Source of the DNA: Candidatus Goldiibacteriota bacterium HGW-Goldbacteria-1 | GTDB taxonomy: Bacteria; Oederibacteriota; PGYV01 | Direction of reading: 5' to 3' | Assembly (NCBI GenBank): GCA_002839855.1 | Contig: PGYV01000001.1 | Location: forward strand, 229,256-293,255 | DNA: 64,000 bases | Shown: piece after piece, positions 1 to 14,686 of the stretch | Numbering within the stretch: position 1 is the first letter of the stretch | Layout of the letters: each line of letters opens with the position of its first letter | Made by a program: the position numbers and the translations under genes | Notes under the pieces: generated by a model | What the model was told of the DNA's origin: nothing | What the model saw: the letters and a program-made list of their open reading frames with translations, nothing else | The model's database searches: none

Positions 1-339
1 ATTTGCCTTGTACTCCGGCGGAGGAGACCATTCAGCAGCCCAGCAAAGCAGGTTTGAATAGGCAGCCTTAGCCGCTACAAGATTGTTTACTTCAGCGGTG
101 TGATTTCCGTTTGGGTCTATCCTGGCCCTTAACGATGAAATCCCGATATGCCCGTTTACATTGTCATCGGCAAAAAGGGTTGTTGCATTCCCTCCTGCCA
201 AACCATACCATGCGCTTGATACGCCAATGGCACGGATGTACTGATACGTGGTGCCTGCATCAACGGTACATGTACCCGCATGCAGAACCGGAACAAACAA
301 CATCAAAAGCACAACCAACAACATACTGACTTTTTTCAT
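1..339 (-). CDS. Secreted glycoside hydrolase, GH30-like (xylanase type); N-terminal part only, runs off the window edge
   Basis: Not in the ORF track. My translation from ATG 339: MKKVSMLLVVLLMLFVPVLHAGTCTVDAGTTYQYIRAIGVSSAWYG...SLRARIDPNG...WAAEWSPPPEYKAN. It has a signal peptide plus GH30-like Q.IR..G.SSAW and W...WSPP motifs and is open to base 1. Confidence 0.7.
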   Translation of the reverse strand, partial: MKKVSMLLVVLLMLFVPVLHAGTCTVDAGTTYQYIRAIGVSSAWYGLAGGNATTLFADDNVNGHIGISSLRARIDPNGNHTAEVNNLVAAKAAYSNLLCWAAEWSPPPEYKAN

Positions 340-398: not shown

Positions 399-514
399 AT
401 ATGAACGTTCATATTTATTCCCTTAAAAAAACCTATTTGTATCTCCCTGTTATTTGCTGTATATGAACGTTCATACTTTAATACAAATTTACACCCATAA
501 ACCATGTTTGTCAA
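399..514 (-). promoter_or_regulatory. Sigma70-type promoter of the GH30 gene with two palindromic operators
   Basis: ATATGAACGTTCATAT at 399-414 (perfect 16-bp palindrome) and TATGAACGTTCATA at 462-475. On the minus strand, TTGACA (509-514) is followed by 17 nt and then TAAATT. Confidence 0.6.
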
Positions 515-1001: not shown

Positions 1002-4000
1002 CTATATGTGAGCAGCTTTTTTCCTCACATTTTTTATGGACTCATAAGTAATTATCTTATCAAATTGCTTATAATCACGATTTGATCTTATTCTTTCATT
1101 ATTCTCATTATACTCTACGCACTTGCGTTCACCTTGAATTATCCAAATAAATTCCATTTTAGAACTCTTAAGATATGCATCCAATTTGTCTTTTCGAATG
1201 AAAAGAAAGTCCTCTTGATTATTGAAATCTTTCTCTTTTTTTAAAGGAAATATAACAACATCACCATTGCTATTATAAAAGCTATAATCTACTGGATTTA
1301 TATATAACTTCAATTTTTTTGCCAATTGTTTATCGGGAACATATGGATGTGTTCCCTGATTTAAAATGCTATGATAATATTCCCATTCAAAGTTTTTATA
1401 TGCATATCTAAATGGTATACTTCGAATATCTTTTTCAATCTTCACTTCATAATATTTACCTTTAATCTTCTTCAATCTGGATTCCATCGCAAACATATCT
1501 GCGATTGTCATGTTATTTTCTTTTAAAAAGTTTGATAGTTCTTCATTTTCAACATTAGCATCTTTTGAAGGTGGTATTCTTTCAATTAACATTCTTCTTT
1601 CCTTTAAAATGAGTTCCAGGTAGTCAGTATTCGTTTTTCTATAATATTTGTGCCATGGTATTTCACCAGCATAAGTATATGTGTCACTTGGCACATCACC
1701 TCCGCCTAATTCAAATTGCATTTTACTATTTCCGAATTCCTTTAAATCTTTTGCTGTTTCCTTACTTATGAATGCCCCTTTAGTATAAATGTGAATATAT
1801 CTTTTATCTTTTTTAGACTCTTGTACTATTAAACCACCTAACAGTACCCATTCATGACCAAAATTTTTAATACTATTAGGAACTAATAAATCATTAAGTT
1901 TTGGCACAGATTTCTGATTCAACCATTTTTCTATTGATGAAATGTTATCTCCCAAATAGGACCACTTCATGAAATCCGGTTCCCTTGGAAACTCAGGAAA
2001 ACTCGGATCAACTCCACAATCAGACAAGCGTTCAGGCCCATAATCATCTTTTATAACACCCATATCTTTTCGATAACCATATAATTCAAAAAATGATATC
2101 CAAGCATACTTTTTGCCATATCTTTCAATCTTTACATTCTCATCAGTTCGCCAACTATCAGTAGCAATCTCTTGATCAACCTTTGAAAATTTCTCAAGCG
2201 AATAACCAAGGTTATATATACGCCACCAAATATTTTGCAAAATTAATTTATAATCATTATTACTATTATCATAATTCCTTCTGGTTGGCGATAAACGTCC
2301 TAATGTATAGTTTTTAAAATCCATGCCCAACGGACAATCCCCACCTCTATATTTATTTTCATCTCTATCTTTTGCTTTCCCCCATTTTCTGCAACTTCCA
2401 CCTTTAAAAGGTTTTATCAACCTTGAATATACTATTTGTTTGTTTTTCCCGCATACTTTTGACGTTAATTCAATAATACCTAATGCAGAATCTCTTAAGA
2501 GAATATTTGTAGTAGCAAATTCAGAACTCTTACAAAACATTTGTCTATAAATTTTAGGAATCAATTTATTAACTTTAAATATTTTCTTTCTTCCCTTTTT
2601 ACTATGTACTAATCTCATTAAAGTTCCATAACTCGCAGAAAACATTCTTTCAACAATATATGGATCATTAATATTTAGACTATTGATTGTTTTCTTCAAC
2701 AAAGCTTCGGGATTTCTTATGCCTAAATATACAAGCGATCTTGTAGCCTTATCTCTTAACGATCTATTTGTTGATGATAAAACCCACGTAAGCACATCAA
2801 TATATAGTGATAGGTATCTTTTAGAGACTTTATTATGATTAATTTCTATCCAGGTAATAAGTTTTTGAATTGCTGAAGACTCATATTCATTTCTAAGGTA
2901 TTCTGTCCAAAATAAATCTCTATCAATTAAATCCATTGAAAAAAGCCATTTATATAACTTTTCATTAAAGCGATGGTTCTTAACGGCCAAAGTTATAATA
3001 GAATCCAATGCTTTAAACCGTAATTGTTGATTTTTTAAAAATAAGTTCAAATATTTACTAGTTCTTTTTGTAATAAAGTTAATTGGTCTCCAAGCCAATC
3101 CCCTAATAAAAGATTCACAATACATATAACTTATCTTTTTCCAATCTAGCAAATCAAATATTTCATTTTTATTTTCATCCCTAATCGGAAATTCTAACAT
3201 AATTGCTTCTGCAAGATTTATATATTCGCCATAATTAGATTCACAAAATATTTTTCCTAAAAAACCTTGTTTTAGAGCATTCTTTTTTTCAGTAATGTTT
3301 TTCTCCGTTAATTCCATCTTGAGAATTGATCTTGCTATCAAATGATCAGATACTTTTTGATATGGAAATTTAATCACTTCCACCCATGAATTATCTCCTT
3401 CATAAATACAAGTTTTAATAAACATACCTTCGGAACAACATTTTTTTATAAATATATCCTTTTCTGACGTCGTCATTGGTGTTAGCATTTTTAAATCATT
3501 AAATTCAGAAGGATTTATATAGTCACGTTGTTTTGCAGACATGACATCTGCAACTTCCTTTGCAACCAGCCAGCAAAAATCCCTTTTTGACGAGAAAGCA
3601 CTTACAAAACTGCCTCCAACCCTTTCATAAAATTGTTCCAAGATAAAAGTCATACTCTTTTGTCCAGAACATATCGAATTTAATTCTTTTGATTTATGTT
3701 TCTTTTCGTGCAAGAAACTAAGTGATTCAGTAAATAATTTTAGAAATAGTGGATTACTATACTCATCTTCCAGCAAAGGCACTTCAGGGGCTGGAACTTT
3801 CTTCCATTTAAAAAAAGCCTGTTGCGCATCAAATTCAATTTTACGAAATCCAAAATGTTTGATCGGAGCAATTAGAGTGCCGTTGACTTTTGTTAATAAT
3901 AGTTTTTCATATGGTGTACGACAACTTAGAACCAGCCCTATACCCTTATACAAACTCATTTTTTGTATTAAGTTTTTTAGCTGTTTCTCCCATTCCTGAA

Positions 4001-4889
4001 TAGAACTATCATTGATTGCATCTACTATCAACAACGAACGCATTTTGTTAGTTTTTGCATAGTCACTCATCTGTTTTAAAAAAGTATCTACTGTCATATT
4101 GTATCCATTTACTTTTACAATATTTTCTAGAATATCCCCTTCAACATTTAAATTTTCAGCTAATGTTATAACTGACATTGCTCCTTGTTCTACATTTCTT
4201 AAAGCTAAGTCACACAAGGTATGTGTTTTACCTATTCCAGCCTCTCCGTAAATTAAAACAAATGGTTTATTATGTATATCTGAGCCGTATTCGGTTAAAA
4301 AAATATAAAACATTTCTGTAACTTCCATTACATCTCTTAACGACGAAATAACCCCTTCATAATTATTATTTAAATCAGATTTATCGACTTTTTGAGGAGC
4401 AATTCTTTCTTCTTTTTTTCTCATACGAGAACTCATAATAATTTTATCAAGCCTCTCTTTCCCAATCTTCAGTTCTTCTAATATATCATTTAATTCAACG
4501 TCATGAAAAAGTCCAATATTGTTTCTAATAATAATTATAGTTTGTATTATTGATTTTAGATTCTTTTGACTTAAACACAAGGCGTCTTTTTCTTGGTCTG
4601 AAAGTATCGAATTTTCGCTATCAAAAATATAAAGTTTTAACGTTTCTTTTGCTTTCTTTTCAATCACGTTTAAAGTTTCAATAAATTCTCCTTTTTGAAA
4701 CAAACTATCAAAAAGATTTTCAAATTTCGCAATATGCAAATTAGGAGACATTTTGTCTAAGGCAGGAGTATATCTTGGACCAGCTTGTTTTAATGCTGCA
4801 TTTATATTTTTCCGACAACTTTTCAAAGTAATTTTATTCAATTCTATTGCTCCAAAATTAACATATATTATTTTTAAGAAACACGGCAA
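1002..4889 (-). CDS. STAND/NACHT-like ATPase, AVAST (Avs2/Avs4)-like antiphage sensor; no recognisable N-terminal effector
   Basis: 1295 aa. Walker A GEAGIGKT, Walker B LLIVDAIND, and motifs recalled from Avs-type proteins (GPRYTP, LRDKATRSL, NDPYIVERM, ERYGKKYAWI). AT-rich (about 28% GC in a sampled line versus about 50% in the neighbouring lacI gene). True start uncertain. Confidence 0.7.
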   Translation of the reverse strand: MPCFLKIIYVNFGAIELNKITLKSCRKNINAALKQAGPRYTPALDKMSPNLHIAKFENLFDSLFQKGEFIETLNVIEKKAKETLKLYIFDSENSILSDQEKDALCLSQKNLKSIIQTIIIIRNNIGLFHDVELNDILEELKIGKERLDKIIMSSRMRKKEERIAPQKVDKSDLNNNYEGVISSLRDVMEVTEMFYIFLTEYGSDIHNKPFVLIYGEAGIGKTHTLCDLALRNVEQGAMSVITLAENLNVEGDILENIVKVNGYNMTVDTFLKQMSDYAKTNKMRSLLIVDAINDSSIQEWEKQLKNLIQKMSLYKGIGLVLSCRTPYEKLLLTKVNGTLIAPIKHFGFRKIEFDAQQAFFKWKKVPAPEVPLLEDEYSNPLFLKLFTESLSFLHEKKHKSKELNSICSGQKSMTFILEQFYERVGGSFVSAFSSKRDFCWLVAKEVADVMSAKQRDYINPSEFNDLKMLTPMTTSEKDIFIKKCCSEGMFIKTCIYEGDNSWVEVIKFPYQKVSDHLIARSILKMELTEKNITEKKNALKQGFLGKIFCESNYGEYINLAEAIMLEFPIRDENKNEIFDLLDWKKISYMYCESFIRGLAWRPINFITKRTSKYLNLFLKNQQLRFKALDSIITLAVKNHRFNEKLYKWLFSMDLIDRDLFWTEYLRNEYESSAIQKLITWIEINHNKVSKRYLSLYIDVLTWVLSSTNRSLRDKATRSLVYLGIRNPEALLKKTINSLNINDPYIVERMFSASYGTLMRLVHSKKGRKKIFKVNKLIPKIYRQMFCKSSEFATTNILLRDSALGIIELTSKVCGKNKQIVYSRLIKPFKGGSCRKWGKAKDRDENKYRGGDCPLGMDFKNYTLGRLSPTRRNYDNSNNDYKLILQNIWWRIYNLGYSLEKFSKVDQEIATDSWRTDENVKIERYGKKYAWISFFELYGYRKDMGVIKDDYGPERLSDCGVDPSFPEFPREPDFMKWSYLGDNISSIEKWLNQKSVPKLNDLLVPNSIKNFGHEWVLLGGLIVQESKKDKRYIHIYTKGAFISKETAKDLKEFGNSKMQFELGGGDVPSDTYTYAGEIPWHKYYRKTNTDYLELILKERRMLIERIPPSKDANVENEELSNFLKENNMTIADMFAMESRLKKIKGKYYEVKIEKDIRSIPFRYAYKNFEWEYYHSILNQGTHPYVPDKQLAKKLKLYINPVDYSFYNSNGDVVIFPLKKEKDFNNQEDFLFIRKDKLDAYLKSSKMEFIWIIQGERKCVEYNENNERIRSNRDYKQFDKIITYESIKNVRKKAAHI

Positions 4890-4954: not shown

Positions 4955-5971
4955 TTACGCGGATTCTCTTTTTACAAGCTCCGGTTCAAATACAAGATTC
5001 TTGGGGGTGGTAAGTTTGCCCTGCATGGCTTCAAGGGTTATCACAAACGCCTCGTTTCCCATTCTCTCCACAGGGTGCCTTACAGTAGTCAGCGACGGCG
5101 TAAACGCTGACGCTACGGGTATGTCGTCATACCCTATAACCGCAATGTCTTCCGGTACGCGAAGCCCCGCTTCTTTTACCGCGTTTATCGCGCCAATTGC
5201 CGTGCTGTCGCCCGCGCCGCAGAATATCGCGTCAATGTCTTTATGCGACTTTAAAAGGTTCTGCGTTATCGCGCGTCCTTCATTTATATAATTGTTATTT
5301 ACCTCTGCCATAATCTCATCGCGGACTGAAATGCCGCGGCCTACAAGCGCCTTTTTATAACCTTCTTCCCTTTCTATTATAGAAGGCCATGTCTCGCCGC
5401 CTGTTTTTGCCATTCCAATGTACGCTATATTGCGCCTTCCTTTATTTATAAGGTAATCAGCCGCCGTAAAAGCGCCTTTTTCATTGTCGCATTTAACGCT
5501 ATGCGCGCCATCCATACACCCGTCTATTAAAATCAGCGGCACCCCTGCTTTTTTTAACTTTTCCATATGCCCCTGTTCCGGTTTTATGCCAAGCATAATT
5601 ATAGCGTCTGCTTTTCTGTTTAAAATTATGGAATCAATTATCTGATCTTTAAACGCGCCTTCGCCCCTTGTGGAATACGGTATCAGGTCATAGTTCGCGG
5701 ACAACCCTGCTAAGTGCACGCCGTCTTCAATTTCGCGCAGTATATTCATTCCAAACACTGAAGTAAACCGCGTGCTGATAAACGCTATTGAATCCGCCTT
5801 TGCGCCCACTAACGCCCTGGCGGTTTTGTTCGGCCTGTACTGAAGTTCTTCTATTGCCTTTAAAACCCTTTCTTTTGTAGCGGGCGCCACTTTATCCACG
5901 CCATTGACCACAAAAGATACCGTGTTGTATGAAACACCCGCGATTTTCGCGACGTCTTTTATAGTTGCCAT
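4955..5971 (-). CDS. LacI-family transcriptional regulator
   Basis: N-terminal TIKDVAKIAGVSYNTVS HTH; periplasmic-binding-like core with VPEDIAVIGYDD and PSLTTV. Confidence 0.95.
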   Translation of the reverse strand: MATIKDVAKIAGVSYNTVSFVVNGVDKVAPATKERVLKAIEELQYRPNKTARALVGAKADSIAFISTRFTSVFGMNILREIEDGVHLAGLSANYDLIPYSTRGEGAFKDQIIDSIILNRKADAIIMLGIKPEQGHMEKLKKAGVPLILIDGCMDGAHSVKCDNEKGAFTAADYLINKGRRNIAYIGMAKTGGETWPSIIEREEGYKKALVGRGISVRDEIMAEVNNNYINEGRAITQNLLKSHKDIDAIFCGAGDSTAIGAINAVKEAGLRVPEDIAVIGYDDIPVASAFTPSLTTVRHPVERMGNEAFVITLEAMQGKLTTPKNLVFEPELVKRESA

Positions 5972-6415
5972 TTATTTGTTTACCTTCCCTTTTTTATTCT
6001 GCATTATTATAAAGGTATTCTCATTATAATTTTTTCTTCTTTTGTACAAAACCCTGTCGCAAAGGGCTTTTATTGTCTTTATTCCCATTTTGCCGCCCAG
6101 CCCTCTTTTAATCCTGCGCGATGTATCCGGAATTTCATACGCCGTCATGTCAAACCGCGGCGCGGAATCCAATACCGTTATTTTTGCGGCCGGATAATTA
6201 AGCTTCATTATAATATCTATCTTCCCGGGCTTCTCCGCGTACGCGTGTTTTATCAGATTTTCGCAGTGCTCTGTTATTGACACTTTCAGCGCGGATATTT
6301 TATCCTGCGCAAAACCGTGATTCTTCATGGCATCGTTTATAAATTTCCTTATCACACCCAGGTTCTGCGCTTTTGCTTCCACTTTTAATTCGGATATTTC
6401 AGCTTTATTTGGCAT
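5972..6415 (-). CDS. Anti-sigma factor / Ser kinase (RsbW/SpoIIAB-like HATPase_c_2)
   Basis: ITEHCENLIKHAY (N-box) and GGKMGIKTIK (G-box). Start adjusted to MPNKAE at 6415; its stop abuts the lacI ATG. Confidence 0.85.
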   Translation of the reverse strand: MPNKAEISELKVEAKAQNLGVIRKFINDAMKNHGFAQDKISALKVSITEHCENLIKHAYAEKPGKIDIIMKLNYPAAKITVLDSAPRFDMTAYEIPDTSRRIKRGLGGKMGIKTIKALCDRVLYKRRKNYNENTFIIMQNKKGKVNK

Positions 6416-6752
6416 AGCTGTCCAGTGCCTCTTTAACCGTTTCATAACTTTCTATCACTCCGTCAATTCCCACAAGGCTGTACACCCTTTTCGCGTCCGG
6501 CTGCATGGCCGCAAGTTTCATTTCACTGCCTTCTGCCTGTAATTCTTTGAATTCATTTAAAAATGCGGTCCAGCCGGCCGAACTTATAAAATCAAGCTGC
6601 TTCATATCCGCCACATATTTCGCTTTCTTATGCTTAGACGATATTTCTTTAAAGCCCAGCGTAAAAGCCGCCACCGACGAAGAGTCCAGTTCGCCGTAAA
6701 CCCGCACAATTATTATTTCTCCGTCCGCGTTTTCCCTGATTTCAAATGGCAT
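6405..6752 (-). CDS. STAS-domain anti-anti-sigma factor (RsbV/SpoIIAA-like)
   Basis: GELDSSS and DMKQLDFISSAGW (phosphorylatable Ser motif); 115 aa. Confidence 0.9.
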   Translation of the reverse strand: MPFEIRENADGEIIIVRVYGELDSSSVAAFTLGFKEISSKHKKAKYVADMKQLDFISSAGWTAFLNEFKELQAEGSEMKLAAMQPDAKRVYSLVGIDGVIESYETVKEALDSYAK

Positions 6753-6765
6753 TTTATTACCTCCG

Positions 6766-8256
6766 TTAAGCTGTCCTGCCTATTAACAAAACAGCGATAT
6801 CATCGCTTTGTTCTTCTTTGCCCGTAAAAACATCAACATCATAAAGCAGTGCGTCAATTATTTCCCGGCATGCACTGCCGCCGTTTTTCTGCAGTGACGT
6901 TACCGCCCTTTCCATGCCAAACCTGCCTCCGCTTTTGGACTTAGCCTCGCTTATGCCGTCCGTGAAAAGAAGCAGTTTGTCGCCTTTTTCAATTTTTACA
7001 GTTATCTTTTCAAGGCGGGTTTCAAAATTATTGCCTTTTAAAATTCCTATAGCCGCGCCTTTGGGGCAGTATGATTCCACCGCGCCCGCGCCGCTTTTAT
7101 AAAACAGTATTTCGTGGTGGCCGGCAGACGCCATTTCAATTAAACCGCCTGCCGTATCAAGCACGGCGTAAAAAATTGTCGCAAAAATATTTCCTTCCAC
7201 CCTGCCAAGAAGCCCGTTGTTAAGGTTTATAAGGACCCGCACAGGGTCAGAATTTAACATGGCTTCGGTGTTTAATACACCCCTTAACATCGTCATGATA
7301 AGCGCGGCAGGCACACCTTTGCCCGACACATCAGCCATAACAATGCCGAACTTTTTATCAGCAAGCGGAATTACATCATAATAATCGCCGCCTATTTCTT
7401 TAGCCGGTTTGTAAAATGCCGATGCTTCATATTTTCCCATATCGGGAAATTTTTTGGGCAGCAGCGAATCCTGAAGCCTGCTTGCAATTTCAAGTTCTTT
7501 TTCCATTGCCAGTTTTTCAAGCGCGGTTTTCTGCGCGCGTTTAAGGTCATCAGTCATTTCATTGAAAGCGCCGGCAAGCAGCCCAAGTTCATTTTTGCTG
7601 TTAATCACAATCTTGTGATTTAAATCGCCGCTGCCGGCAATTTTTACTCCCTGCGCGAGGATATTTATGGGTTTTGTAATAGCCGTGCTTAAAAAGAAAG
7701 CGCCTATAATACTTAAAATCACCGCGATTACCGTCACCAGCGCTATGTTAATGTACGTCTGTTTTAAAGCGCGGCTGATAAGGTCATAAGATACTGCCAC
7801 GCGCACCACGCCTGTCCTTGCTTTATGTTTGGCAATTGCCGCGGCGGTAAATTCTATTAATCTGCCGCCGGACTCTGTTTCAAATATAGTATTTTTCGCG
7901 GCAGTTGTTTTTATCACCCGTCCGGGCTGCGAATATTTCTTTTTTACCCGCGTCATATCGTTATGCGCAAGTATCACTCCGTTTGAACCCACCACCATCG
8001 CGTAAATTACGCCCTTGTTCTGCATCGCTTCTTTTAAAACTTTCGCGGCTTCAAGCTCGTGCCTCATCATTATAAAATCCGCGATATTATTGGCAATATT
8101 GCGGGCTGTACTTATACCCCTTAATTCCACTTCGTTTATAAGGCTTTTTTTATGTATGTTAAGCAGCATAAAGCTCATTATTCCGGTTATAGTAAGGGTA
8201 AGAAAAAGTACAACCCCCATCACTTCCCACTTCATGCTGTTAAAATTTTTTTTCAT
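6766..8256 (-). CDS. Membrane HAMP-domain PP2C/SpoIIE phosphatase (RsbU-like)
   Basis: Two TM helices, HAMP (NELGLLAGAFNEM), and IGGDYYD, ADVSGKG, LFTDGISE and QSDDIA motifs. Confidence 0.9.
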   Translation of the reverse strand: MKKNFNSMKWEVMGVVLFLTLTITGIMSFMLLNIHKKSLINEVELRGISTARNIANNIADFIMMRHELEAAKVLKEAMQNKGVIYAMVVGSNGVILAHNDMTRVKKKYSQPGRVIKTTAAKNTIFETESGGRLIEFTAAAIAKHKARTGVVRVAVSYDLISRALKQTYINIALVTVIAVILSIIGAFFLSTAITKPINILAQGVKIAGSGDLNHKIVINSKNELGLLAGAFNEMTDDLKRAQKTALEKLAMEKELEIASRLQDSLLPKKFPDMGKYEASAFYKPAKEIGGDYYDVIPLADKKFGIVMADVSGKGVPAALIMTMLRGVLNTEAMLNSDPVRVLINLNNGLLGRVEGNIFATIFYAVLDTAGGLIEMASAGHHEILFYKSGAGAVESYCPKGAAIGILKGNNFETRLEKITVKIEKGDKLLLFTDGISEAKSKSGGRFGMERAVTSLQKNGGSACREIIDALLYDVDVFTGKEEQSDDIAVLLIGRTA

Positions 8257-9845
8257 TCTATCCCGCGCCTTTTAAGTTCTTCAATTTCCGCCTGTGTTTT
8301 TCTTAAATCTCTCACAGACTTGACGTCATCCGGGTTTATCGCCAGGACTTTCTTCCACATTTCAACAGCTCCCTTTAAATCGCCCTCTGTGTAGCTGTTT
8401 ACAGCCAGATAATACATTCTGTCCGCCGCCTCTTTCTGTTCGCGCGTCAGCCGAACTTTGCCGCTGCCGGATTCCATATCTTTTTTCGCTTTTGCGATTA
8501 AAGACCTAAGCGCTTTATTCCCCGGCCTGCGCTTTAAGGCCGCTTCCCACTGTTTTATTGCCTCATCATACTGTTTTTTCTCGTATAATTCAATGCCCGC
8601 GGAAATATAAGCGTCCGTATCGCCGCTGTAATCCGTGCCTTCGCCGCTTTTTATCTTTTCTTTAAGTTTTTCTTCAAGAATCTTTTTCATTTTCAGCGAC
8701 GGTTCATAATCTTTTTTCCATTCCAGCGACTTTTCCGCCTCTGTAAGGGCGTCTTCAAATTCATTTCTAAGGTAATATGCGTAAGCGCGGCGGTAATACG
8801 CTTCCGCCTCTTCTTTTAATTTTATCTTAAGCCTTTCTTCCACTATCCTGCGCACTTCAGCGTAAATGCTCCTGCGCCTGTGCGCTTTCTGATCTTCCAG
8901 TGTCATGCCAAACGCGTATGAAAGGGTGTACCTGTCCATCCTTCCAAAACTGCCGTTTGATACAAACGCGTAATCAAATTTAATGTCATATAAATACAGC
9001 CCCGCGCCAAAAGTAAATTCCCCGTCTGTATAGCCCGCCCTTGCGCCCGTAATTCCCGCCCATTTTATCTCTATGCCAACCCTGTCTTTAAAACCTTCCT
9101 TTTCACCGGCAGAAATATCATAAGCGGCCTTAAATTCAAAATCCGCGTATTTGTGTTTTGCCATAACCCCAAGGGTGTATGTGCGCCCAAGCGTTTCGGT
9201 GACCGACTGCATTGAAAAAGCAGGCGTTATAAGGTTGCGGGCGATAAGCCCGGCGCGCAGAAAAGAAAAAGGTTCGTACAGCACGCCTATATCCGCGCCG
9301 AATCCGGCGTAATTAAACCGCGCCATATTGGAGTAATAAATGTCAAAATTCGCGCCGGCAGAAAAGCCGTCGGTTATTTTGCGCGCGTATGATAAGGCCG
9401 CTTTGTACTGGCCGTTTTTAAAATCAGAAGTTTGGTTTCCGTCCGTATCATAACCTTCCATACCGTCAGCGGAAAACATAAACAGCGCCGCGCCAATGGT
9501 TCCAAAATTAAGCAGCGGCTGCCCGTAAGAAACAGACCCGTAAGACACGGCTTCATATAAGGGGTAATATAACAGCGCTATTTCCTGTTTTTTAACAAGC
9601 ACAAGCCCCGCGGGGTTGTAATGAATTGCGGACAAATCATCTGCCACAGCCGTAAAAGCGCCTGCCATGCCGTCCGGCCTGGAACCGGCGCCGGCCATGA
9701 AAACATTTTCACTGCCGTAATCGCCGGGCGCCCCCTGTAAGGGAAAAAAACAAAACAACGCAAGCACTGTCAGCGCCGTTAATTTAATTTTTAGTATGCC
9801 TGTTTTAACCGCGGTCTTTTTCACAAAAACCTCATCACCCGTCAC
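8253..9845 (-). CDS. PorV/PorQ-like outer-membrane beta-barrel fused to C-terminal TPR repeats
   Basis: Signal peptide; GAGSRPDGMAGAFTAVADDLSAIHYNPAGL N-terminal motif; alternating beta-strands; TPR-like YDEAIKQWEAAL and AVEMWKKVLAINPDD. Confidence 0.7.
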   Translation of the reverse strand: MTGDEVFVKKTAVKTGILKIKLTALTVLALFCFFPLQGAPGDYGSENVFMAGAGSRPDGMAGAFTAVADDLSAIHYNPAGLVLVKKQEIALLYYPLYEAVSYGSVSYGQPLLNFGTIGAALFMFSADGMEGYDTDGNQTSDFKNGQYKAALSYARKITDGFSAGANFDIYYSNMARFNYAGFGADIGVLYEPFSFLRAGLIARNLITPAFSMQSVTETLGRTYTLGVMAKHKYADFEFKAAYDISAGEKEGFKDRVGIEIKWAGITGARAGYTDGEFTFGAGLYLYDIKFDYAFVSNGSFGRMDRYTLSYAFGMTLEDQKAHRRRSIYAEVRRIVEERLKIKLKEEAEAYYRRAYAYYLRNEFEDALTEAEKSLEWKKDYEPSLKMKKILEEKLKEKIKSGEGTDYSGDTDAYISAGIELYEKKQYDEAIKQWEAALKRRPGNKALRSLIAKAKKDMESGSGKVRLTREQKEAADRMYYLAVNSYTEGDLKGAVEMWKKVLAINPDDVKSVRDLRKTQAEIEELKRRGIE

Positions 9846-9861
9846 AGCCTGTTTTTTATTT

Positions 9862-11727
9862 TTACCTTAATACGGCCATTTTCTTAACAAGTTTTGCTGT
9901 TACTCCTGTTGATTTATCCTTAACTTCCAGCACGCATAAATAAACGCCGGACAATACTTCAATTTTATTATCATTCGTACCGTCCCATTCATCTTCAGAA
10001 TGGCGCCCCGCGGATTTTACGGTTTTATCCAGGACAGTCTTTACGTGTTTTCCCGTGACGGTAAAAATTTTTATGCTTACTTCCGAATCATTTTTTAAGT
10101 GATAACTGATACTTGCAGGCGACTGTTTTGGATCCACAGGATTGGGAAAAATATGAAACGATTCCTTAAGCGCGGGCGGAACCGGCGTGGCTGTCGCCGT
10201 GGGGCTGGGGCAGAACCCAAGCATAATATCCCCCAGATTCGCCGAACTTTCCCAGTTATTTTCATCCCCGTTCCATACAAGCTGTCCCACGCGCTCCGTG
10301 GTGCCGTTGTTAAAATCAATCTGCACGTCAAACTGATAAAAACTTCCGGTTACAGGGACAACGCCCAGCGTTGACCACGGTATCAACACTTCCATTATAT
10401 ATCCCGCAGAACCGGCTTTAAGAGTGCTTTTGTATTGAAGCCCGCCCGGCGGCAGAGCGACAGTGGCGTTTAAGCAGAACTGCAGGCAGTCGTAACTTAT
10501 CATAAAATGAAAATCGCCCACAGAGCCGGGATAAGGCTGGGTGCCGCGGTCATTGGCCATATCAAGGTATATTTCCACCGCGGAATCATTGTAATTGGCG
10601 CACGCCACCTGCGTGGCGTTAAGGTAGGAATCGTTTACGTCAACACCCACATAAAGGTTATCATTATCCCAAAGGGTTTTAAAACTTCCGGAAATATTAT
10701 TCGGGTTTGTACCAAGGCACAGTTCAGATACCTGATATTCCTGCGCGGACGCCCACGAACTTTCATTCATTAATCCGTCAATGGTTATGCCCCGCGCGCA
10801 TCCGGCGGTTGCCGTCAAAGAAGCAGACATTGTTATATAATAATTTTGATCCGCCTGGCTTCCGCAATCATCGGTATATACAGCGGCAAACGTATTAAGC
10901 CCCGGCGTTAAAGGTATTGCTGATAATTCGCGCGATAATGAAGTGAATCCTGACGGCCCGGTCCAGCTCCATGTTCCGCCCGTTAAAGGCTGCGGGCCAA
11001 GGTTTACCACAGAACCCTGATTTACGGTAACGGTGTCTGTCTGCTGCCAGGTTCCGCCGTTTACCTGAAGATATGGAATGATTTGCGGTGTCGCGCACGG
11101 CGTCCTCGTGCAGGTGGGCGTGGGCGGCATGGGGTTTATCTGCACCGCGCAGACCTGCGCATTGTCAATTACGGCAGGCCCGAACTGAATTGATATCTGC
11201 CCTGCCGCCGGAGATATATTATCAAACGTTTTGCTTACCGCCCTGAAAGCGGAACCCGCTTCATTATAAATATCAAAATCGTCAAGCACCCGCGTGCTGT
11301 TTATAAATACGTCAAATATCCTGTCACCTGCGGCTTCCCAGTATAATTCAGCGAATTTAAGCGTAACCTGATAACTGCCCGGCGGCACATTGAATGTGTA
11401 TGTGAAGGGGTTCCCGTATCTTTCAAACTGGTAAAGCGGGCTGTCAGCGGTATTTGCAACCGTAACCGTAACACTGTGCCCATACCCGCCGCTGTAATTT
11501 GTATCCGCCGCCCATGTGTTGCCCCAGCTGTCAGGATACGCGGCGCCCCCCGCGTTTACCCGCCACACGGATGAAACAGCAATATTATATGTAGGGGTGA
11601 TAGTGGCGGTGGCCGTGATGGTAAGTGTTGCTGTTGCGGCATTAGCAGCGCATGCAATTATTAAAGTATATAGGAGTACATTCAGGCTTTTGATTAGAAT
11701 TACCGGAGCACTTGCCGATTTTTTCAT
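9862..11727 (-). CDS. Secreted carbohydrate-binding protein: malectin + Ig-like + CBM9/DOMON-like + FlgD/T9SS-type C-terminal sorting domain
   Basis: WRVNAGG...LYQFERYG...LKFAELYW (malectin), ITIDG...LWDNDNLYV...DSAVEIYLD (CBM9-like), FPNP...VSIKIFTVTGKHV...WDGTND...SGVYL (sorting domain), and Thr-rich linkers. Confidence 0.75.
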   Translation of the reverse strand: MKKSASAPVILIKSLNVLLYTLIIACAANAATATLTITATATITPTYNIAVSSVWRVNAGGAAYPDSWGNTWAADTNYSGGYGHSVTVTVANTADSPLYQFERYGNPFTYTFNVPPGSYQVTLKFAELYWEAAGDRIFDVFINSTRVLDDFDIYNEAGSAFRAVSKTFDNISPAAGQISIQFGPAVIDNAQVCAVQINPMPPTPTCTRTPCATPQIIPYLQVNGGTWQQTDTVTVNQGSVVNLGPQPLTGGTWSWTGPSGFTSLSRELSAIPLTPGLNTFAAVYTDDCGSQADQNYYITMSASLTATAGCARGITIDGLMNESSWASAQEYQVSELCLGTNPNNISGSFKTLWDNDNLYVGVDVNDSYLNATQVACANYNDSAVEIYLDMANDRGTQPYPGSVGDFHFMISYDCLQFCLNATVALPPGGLQYKSTLKAGSAGYIMEVLIPWSTLGVVPVTGSFYQFDVQIDFNNGTTERVGQLVWNGDENNWESSANLGDIMLGFCPSPTATATPVPPALKESFHIFPNPVDPKQSPASISYHLKNDSEVSIKIFTVTGKHVKTVLDKTVKSAGRHSEDEWDGTNDNKIEVLSGVYLCVLEVKDKSTGVTAKLVKKMAVLR

Positions 11728-11882
11728 TAATCACCCCGCAATATCGCTGCATGTATTATCCGAGTTTTTTTTATCGGGTAATTATATATCATGGCCATTT
11801 CAAATACCATAACTATATAAACGCATACGGTCAGAATATACCGTTGTGCACGGGCTGTCAATAAAAGATATTCCCCCCTGCC

Positions 11883-13739: not shown

Positions 13740-14686
13740 TCAAGAACTCTTATTCAATTTAATCCCTTTAAGCGTGTTTATGCCTTTTTGCGTTGCAATA
13801 TACTTTTGCTTGGAACTGCTTGGTTTATCCGGTATTGTCATTTTAATCAGGTTGTATTTTATAAGCGGTTTTATAATTTCATTCCTTGTCCTGCTTTTAT
13901 TTGTTTTTCCAATCAGCTCCATTACGGCCTGCAGCGTTGTTTCGCCGGAAGCTGCGTTTAATACAGCCACCGCTGTGTTTATACTCATGAACTTAGGACA
14001 GACCTGAGACAGACTTGGGACAGACTTAGGATCAACCTGAGACATTGGAAGTGTTTTTTCAGATACGTTTTTATCTGAAGTTGTAGCTCCGGCAGAGCCA
14101 CCCCCTTTGCGCTCTCATATAAACCGCTGCCTGTGTCTTTTAAAAATTGAAGTATTATATCCCTCTTCATATCCCGTATATCGGCATTATGGTTAACCCT
14201 GTCGTCAAACGGAATGCGGGCAGATATTTCCAAAAGCTGTTTTTCCTCATGTTGATTTGCCTTTACTGTTGTGGAATGCCGCCTGATATAATAGGCTTTT
14301 TCTGAACCTTCATAGCTGACAGGCGCCTTATATGGCCGGTTTTCCCCTCCCGGTACCCATAATACCAGGACTCTTTTTTTAAAATATATTTCAGGAGATA
14401 GAATCACCTGCGGAAAAGGTAATATCTTATACTGGGTTTCGATTATTTTCTTCTGGTATGCTTCAACCTGTGATTCTTTCAAGCCGGCCGGCGGAAGTTC
14501 AGGTGCCCCATCCGAGGATTTAACACCAAAAATTATATAACCGCCCCCGATATTATTAATATCATTCGCAAAAGCGCATATTGTCTGCGTTACTTTTTCC
14601 GGATTGAACCCTTCCTTATAATCCAGCCTGTCAGACTCTACAGTAAGCCCTTTGAATAATTCCTCTATCTTTATGGGTAACGGCAT
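13740..14686 (-). pseudogene. AlbA_2/Schlafen-like ATP-binding regulator with an internal deletion and frameshift
   Basis: N-terminal ESDRLDYK...ICAFAND...GGYIIFGV (13985-14686). The C-terminal HTH tail MTIPDKPSSSKQKY (13740-14045) is in another frame, joined near 14090. The usual central domain is missing. 12-nt repeats at about 14010-14050. Confidence 0.7.

Follow-up and report, generated by a model that had tools for sequence, protein, structure and literature searches.

Signalling from the cell surface that involves an outer-membrane barrel belonging to the T9SS (type IX secretion system) has been described in Porphyromonas gingivalis, in which the lectin-like protein PorA, carrying a C-terminal sorting domain (CTD), binds PorV and stands upstream of PorY, a sensor kinase; according to the authors, a further, unknown factor is needed to connect PorA with PorY (Yukitake et al. 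2020, PMC7712824). Here we describe a cluster of six genes on the minus strand of a 64,000-nucleotide stretch of DNA (the window) from Candidatus Goldiibacteriota bacterium HGW-Goldbacteria-1 (GCA_002839855.1, contig PGYV01000001.1, positions 229,256 to 293,255 of the forward strand). The cluster encodes a secreted protein (the cargo), a PorV/PorQ-like barrel with a tetratricopeptide repeat (TPR) arm, a Cache-HAMP-PP2C receptor phosphatase, a STAS protein, an RsbW-like kinase and a LacI-family repressor, and we lean, with moderate confidence, towards reading it as a pathway by which a diderm, fibre-degrading member of the Goldbacteria would sense polysaccharide across its envelope and control one giant hemicellulase gene. 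The Goldbacteria lineage (FCPU426) is known for its many cellulases (PMC7031533).

In our reading, the closest functional precedent is PorA-PorV-PorXY-SigP of P. gingivalis, which resembles the cluster in that a small surface protein, combining lectin-like and sorting domains, is placed upstream of a sensor in the inner membrane. In P. gingivalis, however, the genes do not lie together, PorV lacks a TPR arm, a histidine kinase serves as the sensor, and the output is an extracytoplasmic function (ECF) sigma factor that controls T9SS genes, whereas the cluster has a 210-aa arm, an overlap of the barrel and sensor genes, a PP2C phosphatase with STAS protein and kinase, and an apparent LacI output. 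With PorV and PorQ of the T9SS (Glew et al. 2017, PMC5562754; SprA-PorV structure 6H3I) the cluster barrel shares the FadL-like fold, the family, the sorting-domain partner and a SprA-like translocon, but it differs from them in its TPR arm, in its adjacent one-barrel-per-cargo genes, in that no PorU body was found, and in its occurrence outside Bacteroidota. The order of PP2C, STAS (with its conserved serine) and putative GHKL kinase genes is the same as in RsbU-RsbV-RsbW-SigB and SpoIIE-SpoIIAA-SpoIIAB-SigF; unlike in those systems, a LacI-family gene takes the place of the sigma gene, and the phosphatase is a Cache membrane receptor coupled to outer-membrane genes. The RsgI/SigI system of Clostridium thermocellum (PMC10328401, PMC6852018) follows the same logic, in that non-catalytic extracellular carbohydrate-binding modules (CBMs) sense insoluble polysaccharide and enzyme genes are turned on. 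RsgI, however, is a single-pass anti-sigma factor of a monoderm and is activated by proteolysis, whereas in the cluster the signal would cross an outer membrane and the periplasm via a barrel and a phosphatase switch, so that the likeness is in logic only; Pfam and NCBIfam searches found no RsgI or SigI domain in the six proteins.

In TonB-dependent signalling, known from FecA-FecR-FecI and from the SusC-like transducers of Bacteroides with their anti-sigma and ECF sigma factors, an outer-membrane barrel relays ligand information by way of a periplasmic domain to an inner-membrane regulator, which resembles the scheme proposed for the cluster, but in the cluster the ligand-binding part would be a separate, tethered protein, and the same searches of the six proteins found no TonB-dependent receptor, N-terminal signalling domain or FecR-like anti-sigma factor. 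Partner switches with targets other than sigma factors are represented by SiaABCD, HsbR-HsbA (Pseudomonas aeruginosa) and SypE-SypA (Vibrio fischeri), which like the cluster pair a HAMP-PP2C protein with a STAS-type substrate, but whose outputs are diguanylate cyclases or biofilm functions; no paper found reports a LacI-family output or an outer-membrane front end for such a switch. Literature searches combining PorV with partner switching, T9SS with anti-sigma antagonist, and partner switching with LacI and STAS returned nothing relevant, and the combination of TPR arm, overlap with a Cache-HAMP receptor, PP2C/STAS/kinase switch and LacI-operator output is not described in the searchable literature. 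A preliminary description of this DNA, made from its letters alone, had not recognised any described system in the architecture; no description of the whole was found here either, while PorA-PorV-PorY of P. gingivalis (PMC7712824) is a partial precedent.

The genes of the cluster and the candidate promoter of the operon are located as follows (window coordinates):

9862-11727, minus strand: secreted cargo/sensor gene (gene 1), 621 aa
8253-9845, minus strand: PorV/PorQ-family barrel-TPR gene (gene 2)
6766-8256, minus strand: Cache-HAMP-PP2C receptor phosphatase gene (gene 3)
6405-6752, minus strand: STAS gene (gene 4)
5972-6445, minus strand: RsbW-like GHKL serine kinase gene (gene 5), likely true start 6415
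4955-5971, minus strand: LacI-family repressor gene, lacI (gene 6)
11781-11861, minus strand: candidate operon promoter region, with TTGACA-17-TATTCT from 11861 to 11833

All six are co-oriented open reading frames (ORFs) with tight junctions, as the preliminary description had proposed, and its domain calls for the six proteins were upheld by Pfam and NCBIfam. The gap between the cargo and barrel genes is 16 nt and that between the PP2C and STAS genes 13 nt; the barrel stop codon and the PP2C start codon overlap as ATGA (8253-8256), the STAS and kinase genes overlap, and the ATG of lacI abuts the kinase stop codon (5971/5972). For the kinase, the start at 6415 is favoured over that at 6445 by the match to the ortholog from the same genus. 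Besides the candidate promoter hexamers there is a -10-like element, GATATATAAT, at 11790-11781, some 53 nt ahead of the cargo ATG, and its counterpart, (G/A)TGTATAAT, stands at the same distance from the gene in orthologous loci. A LacI-type operator or a notable near-operator was searched for upstream of the cargo gene and none was found; autoregulation of the six-gene operon by LacI was rejected because this region holds the conserved -10 element without an operator. The window region was matched in DNA metagenome runs (2016 groundwater and others), with no RNA run among the matches.

Relatives of the locus were compared over about 20 kb fetched around the relatives of the barrel gene. Conservation of gene order, on which the preliminary description had staked its proposal beforehand, was complete: the order cargo, barrel-TPR, PP2C, STAS, kinase, LacI is the same in all 11 orthologous loci with enough context to be read, which belong to several families of the order and have barrels of 53-94% identity. 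The order is represented by 24 genomes, of which 15 have orthologs of the cluster; the upstream flanks differ between genomes, so the block moves as a unit. No protein of the cluster is better conserved than LacI (71-95% identity among orthologs). Its gene abuts or overlaps the kinase gene in most of the orthologs, and the two genes stay coupled in nearly all. Two loci showed interrupted genes, namely a lacI split into two ORFs (G006, L031:5623-6610) and a PP2C gene with an in-frame TGA (G004:C4:25241-26733), which means either that the module has decayed in single lineages or that the assemblies are in error.

In relatives, the gene of a giant secreted enzyme comes after lacI. The corresponding features in and beside the window are:

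1-339, minus strand: 5' end of the giant secreted enzyme gene, which continues to G000:C12:223268
486-514, minus strand: enzyme promoter-like site, TTGACA-17-TAAATT, whose position and sequence are kept at 9 further loci
463-474, palindrome: putative operator O1, ATGAACGTTCAT, just downstream of the -10
401-412, palindrome: putative operator O2, ATGAACGTTCAT, 62 bp downstream of O1
1002-4889, minus strand: Avs2-like STAND NTPase gene (NF041813, E 2.7e-145, with a score of 486 bits where the cut-off is 1000)

The whole enzyme gene spans C12:223268-229594 (window -5987 to 339), and its 2108-aa product combines glycoside hydrolase (GH) domains of families GH43 and GH10 with CBM6, CBM4_9, malectin, CBM3 and a sorting domain; the ortholog in G003 has a GH30-like N-terminal part followed by GH43, CBM6, GH10 and CBM3. 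The core 10-mer of the putative operators, TGAACGTTCA, occurs twice in the whole 2.86-Mb genome, both times in the enzyme promoter, and the palindrome has the central CG of the LacI/GalR style. Promoter and two operators recur before the orthologous enzyme gene in 9 other loci (10 in total), with an O1-O2 spacing of 56-62 bp in all two-copy loci. The exact 12-mer ATGAACGTTCAT is present in 13 of the 15 cluster-bearing genomes, nearly always on the cluster contig, and the remaining two (G003 and G009) carry one-base variants in the same place, as against 1 of 26 cluster-less genomes (0 of 9 of the order and 1 of 17 of other classes; Fisher p 8e-8). This is the pattern expected of a local LacI-family repressor with a single target. 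The LacI of the cluster has a helix-turn-helix domain (PF00356, E 4e-18) and a complete effector-binding domain (PF13377, Peripla_BP_3, E 4e-32), and, judging from position and co-occurrence, it very probably represses the giant GH43/GH10 gene through the two operators. The preliminary description had taken LacI to be coupled in the same transcript; its presence in the cluster is confirmed, while the role of a mere passenger is disfavoured by two genome-unique operators at the neighbouring enzyme gene.

The Avs2-like gene, with a GC content of about 30% against about 45% in its surroundings, is missing at the corresponding place in the genome of the same genus (G001, L021), and we interpret it as an AT-rich insertion that splits lacI from its presumed target and lies outside the system. 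At another locus (G004, L030:5621-5871) the gene downstream of the orthologous lacI is a different one, encoding a 1180-aa CTD protein, and its promoter holds another LacI-type near-palindrome, TGATTGACCGGTAAATCA, with a half-matching second copy; in that genome the ATGAACGTTCAT operators and the giant enzyme gene are found further on along the same contig, past a paralogous module of the type called A below.

The cargo also resembles the enzyme. It consists of a signal peptide, a malectin domain (residues 54-185), a module that we call X (204-302), a CBM9 (316-503) and a T9SS-type sorting domain (526-621), and Pfam and NCBIfam found no catalytic domain in it. Malectin (E 8e-30) and CBM9_1 (E 8e-28) were called by Pfam, and comparison with PDB sequences gave malectin 2k46 (E 2e-15) and the CBM9 of Thermotoga Xyn10A, 1i82 (E 2e-14). 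The sorting domain matched TIGR04183 with 25.1 bits, above the cut-off of 23, and at the same C-terminus Por_Secre_tail (17.4) and FlgD_ig (22.6) were both under the Pfam cut-off of 27. Only the X module and the sorting domain were moderately confident in an AlphaFold2 (AF2) model built on a 6-sequence alignment, in which residues 538-619 are beta-rich with a predicted local distance difference test (pLDDT) score of 72-89. Two modules are shared with the giant enzyme, each at 59% identity: malectin (cargo residues 55-201, enzyme residues 1519-1669) and the otherwise unannotated X module of 100 residues (cargo 204-302, enzyme 423-522). Genome-wide, the giant enzyme is the best paralog of the cargo malectin and the sole other carrier of the X module, and the same sharing between sensor and enzyme was seen in G001, G003 and G009. 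In C. thermocellum, the extracellular modules of RsgI mirror those of the enzymes that it controls (PMC10328401, PMC6852018). As a separate observation, the signal peptide of the cargo (residues 1-30; window 11640-11727, minus strand) ends LIIAC-AANA, and in cargo orthologs a Cys again stands in an (I/A)AC context (AIACACEA, AIACSG); this Cys may belong to a lipobox, in which case the cargo would be lipid-anchored as well as CTD-bearing.

The proteins between surface and repressor resemble those of a partner switch. The product of gene 3 consists of a transmembrane segment, a periplasmic single-Cache-like domain (residues 37-166), a second transmembrane segment, a HAMP domain and a PP2C phosphatase of the SpoIIE family (PF07228, E 2.3e-46), in which the metal-binding motifs GDYYD, DVSGKG, TDG and DD are readable; its HAMP-PP2C part gave a SiaA-like match in NCBIfam. 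The STAS protein (TIGR00377, 60 bits, above the cut-off of 53) carries Ser58 in the motif FISSAGW, which aligns with Ser58 of Bacillus subtilis SpoIIAA (1auz), and the serine is kept in all types of module, including one without a kinase. The kinase (HATPase_c_2, 57 bits) has RsbW and SpoIIAB as its best family matches, with RsbW equivalog scores below the cut-offs; compared with B. subtilis RsbW (6m36), it retains the N-box E..N..HAY, the G2 box and the Asp of the G1 box, where it reads DSA instead of DEG (DxG).

In the preliminary description the output of this switch was a sigma factor. The sigma-70-family genes of the genome number 12, comprising RpoD, a 369-aa group-1/2-like protein, FliA and about 9 of ECF size, and the output to a sigma factor was rejected in that form, since neither a linked sigma gene nor one of SigB/SigF type was found in the genome: none is in or beside the cluster in the 11 orthologous loci or in the paralogous loci, and the sigma inventory holds none of SigB/SigF type apart from FliA, the only group-3 sigma, which lies inside the flagellar cluster. 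In the known operons the order is rsbV-rsbW-sigB and spoIIAA-spoIIAB-sigF, and lacI is placed where sigB and sigF stand. This position, abutting or overlapping the kinase gene, points to LacI instead of a sigma factor as the possible partner of the switch, although we put forward an action of the switch proteins on LacI only tentatively and regard it as rather unlikely in itself; otherwise LacI would respond to a soluble sugar alone and the switch would have a different target. It is also possible, if on the unlikely side, that the RsbW-like protein is an anti-sigma factor in the classical sense for a sigma encoded elsewhere, with LacI an independent sugar-responsive repressor that merely shares the transcript. 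Such an arrangement would agree with the family matches of the kinase, with the 12 available sigma genes, among them the 369-aa protein and FliA, and with the complete effector-binding domain of LacI. It agrees less well with the absence of sigma genes from the orthologous and paralogous loci, with the flagellar setting of the sole group-3 sigma and with the place of lacI next to the kinase gene; moreover, both relevant promoters are sigma-70-like, and the paralogous modules encode other, non-sigma outputs right after their switch genes.

The barrel protein is divided into a barrel (residues ~40-312) and a C-terminal helical, TPR-containing arm of about 210 aa (316-526). It matched the PorV/PorQ family model NF033709 with 96 bits (cut-off 90) in addition to TPRs, and stayed under the equivalog cut-offs of PorQ (71 bits), PorV2 (58) and PorV (32). 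An AF2 model from a 45-sequence alignment (pLDDT 85) has beta strands from 87 to 312, then a 44-residue helix and TPR-like helices to 526, and its top fold match in the PDB was PorV in the SprA complex (6h3i_F, E 1.9e-10, TM-score 0.65 on the target), with FadL and TodX as the next matches. Both termini of FadL-type barrels face the periplasm, so the arm should be periplasmic as well, judging from the topology of the family. A peptide at the C-terminus of the arm, EL.EL.KRGI(K/E), was considered as a docking motif and rejected, as it is absent from a sensor-coupled second barrel (on contig C8, see below) and from homologs in Elusimicrobiota. Relatives of the barrel bear no more specific public names than 'PorV/PorQ family protein' or 'TPR repeat protein'.

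In every locus examined, the gene directly upstream of the barrel encodes a CTD. The sorting domain of the cargo would be tethered in the barrel. The genome encodes a SprA-like translocon (2079-aa ORF, G000:C14:108851-115090, TIGR04189, 205.9 bits, cut-off 200), about 20 PorV-family barrels and at least 27 ORFs with sorting domains, often as adjacent cargo-barrel pairs. PorV-family barrels in Elusimicrobiota and in metagenomes have varied C-terminal periplasmic tails (TPR, OmpA, LysM-like, SH3, fn3), and a CTD cargo gene is located directly upstream in almost all of them. Such pairing indicates that each cargo has a barrel to itself, in contrast to Bacteroidota, where a single PorV is shared.

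Pairing of the barrel gene with the gene of an inner-membrane sensor recurs within the phylum. In paralogous loci (36-44% identity) the core of cargo, PorV-TPR, Cache-HAMP-PP2C and STAS is kept while the ends vary, and the gene upstream of the barrel always ends in the sorting motif SGVYLCVLEVK...VLR, as does the cargo of the cluster. Type A modules have a CBM35 or unannotated cargo, then barrel-TPR, PP2C, STAS and LacI, without a kinase; type B modules have a ~2700-aa cargo, barrel-TPR, a small HATPase-like protein, PP2C, STAS, a second HATPase_c_2 protein, MCP-signal, PilZ and more. Over 41 genomes of the phylum, at least 48 of 73 full-length Cache-HAMP-PP2C genes were accompanied by a PorV-family gene that lay on the same strand and no more than 4 kb upstream, where about 2% would be expected by chance, as estimated from ~30 listed matches per 2.8-Mb genome; in most loci the barrel and sensor genes overlap by ATGA. 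A further module of this genome (G000:C8:14493-18218, L157:6493-10218) consists of a 464-aa PorV-like barrel and a 773-aa fusion of an RsbW-like HATPase_c_2 kinase with HAMP and PP2C. It has neither a cargo gene nor a STAS gene as a neighbour, and the barrel-fusion pair is conserved across the order. Elsewhere (G000:C13:38710-50133, L158:710-12133) two cargo-barrel pairs are convergent, one of them with a 333-aa barrel followed by a 756-aa T2SSE-type ATPase-TPR fusion and an M50B-like protein.

Outside the phylum the same front end is found with other transmitters. In a metagenome-assembled genome of Elusimicrobia, a CTD cargo with Big_5 repeats is followed by an overlapping gene for a 655-aa PorV-TPR protein, a sCache_3_2-HAMP-HisKA-HATPase_c protein and a hybrid kinase. 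A sample of 151 Elusimicrobiota genomes contained 14 full-length PorV-TPR genes, all 14 of them preceded by a CTD cargo, and 8 of the 14 (plus 1 variant) followed by a Cache-HAMP histidine kinase. In their Cache-HAMP part these kinases share 30-38% identity with the Goldbacterial PP2C protein, so the input triad is homologous and the transmitter swapped. At a metagenome locus (L153:1773-8773) the gene of a HAMP-guanylate/adenylate cyclase comes first, followed by those of a 1206-aa Por_Secre_tail cargo and a 590-aa PorV-TPR protein, and the cyclase is, by its domains, a third kind of transmitter beside the cargo-barrel pair. Next to barrel-only relatives of PorV, such a sensor was found at 0 of ~65 loci. 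A distant Cache-HAMP homolog, the PAS histidine kinase P0030, has no PorV gene beside it, indicating that related Cache-HAMP sensors are not always coupled to a barrel. As the barrel and the sensor recur together with other cargos and other transmitters, we argue that they work together, and the coupling proposed in the preliminary description has thereby gained comparative support, both from the paralogous modules and from the exchange of the transmitter in another phylum. On another contig, that of P0109, a 6578-aa Kelch/beta-propeller protein and a PorV-TPR protein are followed by an 840-aa HisKA-HATPase_c-FliG_M/FliG_C protein, a MotA/ExbB protein and a MotB/OmpA protein; by its domains this is an odd fusion of kinase and FliG, with its own stator, beside a cargo-barrel pair.

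Several observations weigh against a relay from the surface to LacI. PorV-TPR genes without a sensor exist, both in this genome (the 565-aa PorV-TPR protein on contig C13) and in Elusimicrobiota, where the gene after PorV-TPR is LacI-like, judged on its C-terminal sequence alone, at L134, and a TPR protein with efflux-like genes follows at L135, L138 and L139. The Cache-like domain of gene 3 (sCache_3_2) scored 27.7 bits, slightly under the Pfam cut-off of 28.4, and Cache domains commonly bind small ligands by themselves. The mean pLDDT of the cargo model is 52.6. Type A modules, with STAS and LacI yet without a kinase, weaken the proposed wiring from switch to LacI, although they are confined to genomes that also have the six-gene module, so that the kinase could act in trans. 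The genome has 12 LacI paralogs, 11 besides that of the cluster, and the assignment of the operators to the latter comes only from position and co-occurrence. Finally, no body of the PorU sortase was found in the genome (NF033707 matched just the C-terminal sorting domains of 27 ORFs), and the PorM/GldM model TIGR03517 had no match in it, nor in any control genome; with PorU lacking and PorM undetected, export and holding of the cargo may differ from those of the T9SS in Bacteroidota. In P. gingivalis, PorU, PorZ and the CTD form of PorA stay bound to barrels via their sorting domains (PMC7712824), and the absence of a sortase would fit sorting domains that remain bound to barrels.

The small-ligand binding of Cache domains and the barrels without a neighbouring sensor speak for co-regulation without a relay, in which Cache-HAMP-PP2C would sense a soluble periplasmic sugar alone (e.g. 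xylo-oligosaccharides), the cargo and barrel would be the binding protein and anchor of the regulon, and the TPR arm would serve assembly or anchoring; the other periplasmic tails of the PorV family (OmpA, LysM-like, SH3, fn3) look structural as well. We consider this doubtful. The adjacency of barrel and sensor persists over two phyla while transmitter and cargos change, their genes overlap by ATGA in most loci, the roughly 65 barrel-only loci lack such a sensor, and neither an operator nor any other sign marks the operon as a regulated target in its own right. A checkpoint of occupancy or secretion, reporting the loading of the barrel (export success, loss or mechanical load) instead of glycan binding, would suit the giant adhesin-like cargos of paralogous and distant loci, which have no recognisable sugar-binding domains, but is improbable here, where the cargo consists solely of carbohydrate-binding modules, two of them common to the regulated enzyme, and where the output is a sugar-family repressor before a hemicellulase gene.

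In the trans-envelope pathway that we favour, the non-catalytic CBM-module protein, two of whose modules are copies of those in the regulated enzyme, would be exported and held at the surface by its T9SS-type sorting domain in the dedicated PorV/PorQ-like barrel. The periplasmic TPR arm would report the state of the surface protein, bound to xylan or cellulose or not, to the Cache domain of the HAMP-PP2C receptor. PP2C would then dephosphorylate Ser58 of the STAS protein and the RsbW-like kinase would re-phosphorylate it, and LacI would bind both operators, which lie over the promoter of the neighbouring GH43/GH10 gene (2108 aa). In the presence of substrate repression would be lifted, through an action of the switch proteins on LacI or through a soluble sugar that LacI binds as well. 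The tethering, the contact of TPR arm and Cache domain, the direction of signalling and the link from switch to LacI are the steps that we propose by interpretation of the locus. A more general claim, that PorV-TPR barrels are outer-membrane transducers which convey the ligand state of a tethered protein to Cache-HAMP receptors, and that the STAS or the RsbW-like protein acts directly on LacI as an anti-repressor, is speculative and on balance doubtful.

Apart from these subjects, a 233-aa ORF of the window (13985-14686, minus strand) is a truncated form of a 531-aa ORF that occupies the same place in the same-genus genome G001 (L021:14193-15788).

To our knowledge, the way in which bacteria with an outer membrane sense insoluble plant polymers is largely unsolved beyond the SusC/anti-sigma and hybrid two-component systems of Bacteroides. 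The locus offers what would be a complete and testable chain, from candidate binding modules (malectin, X and CBM9) through a relay and a phospho-switch to an operator read-out, and its parts are small enough for expression and assay in E. coli. As the same front end occurs with other transmitters in at least two phyla, results obtained here would generalise, and they would bear on the regulation of enzymes in uncultured fibre degraders such as the Goldbacteria. If the more general claim on PorV-TPR barrels and anti-repressors is true, no earlier partner switch would have had a LacI output, diderms would have a new route for sensing insoluble polysaccharide, and what connects PorA with PorY would have a candidate.

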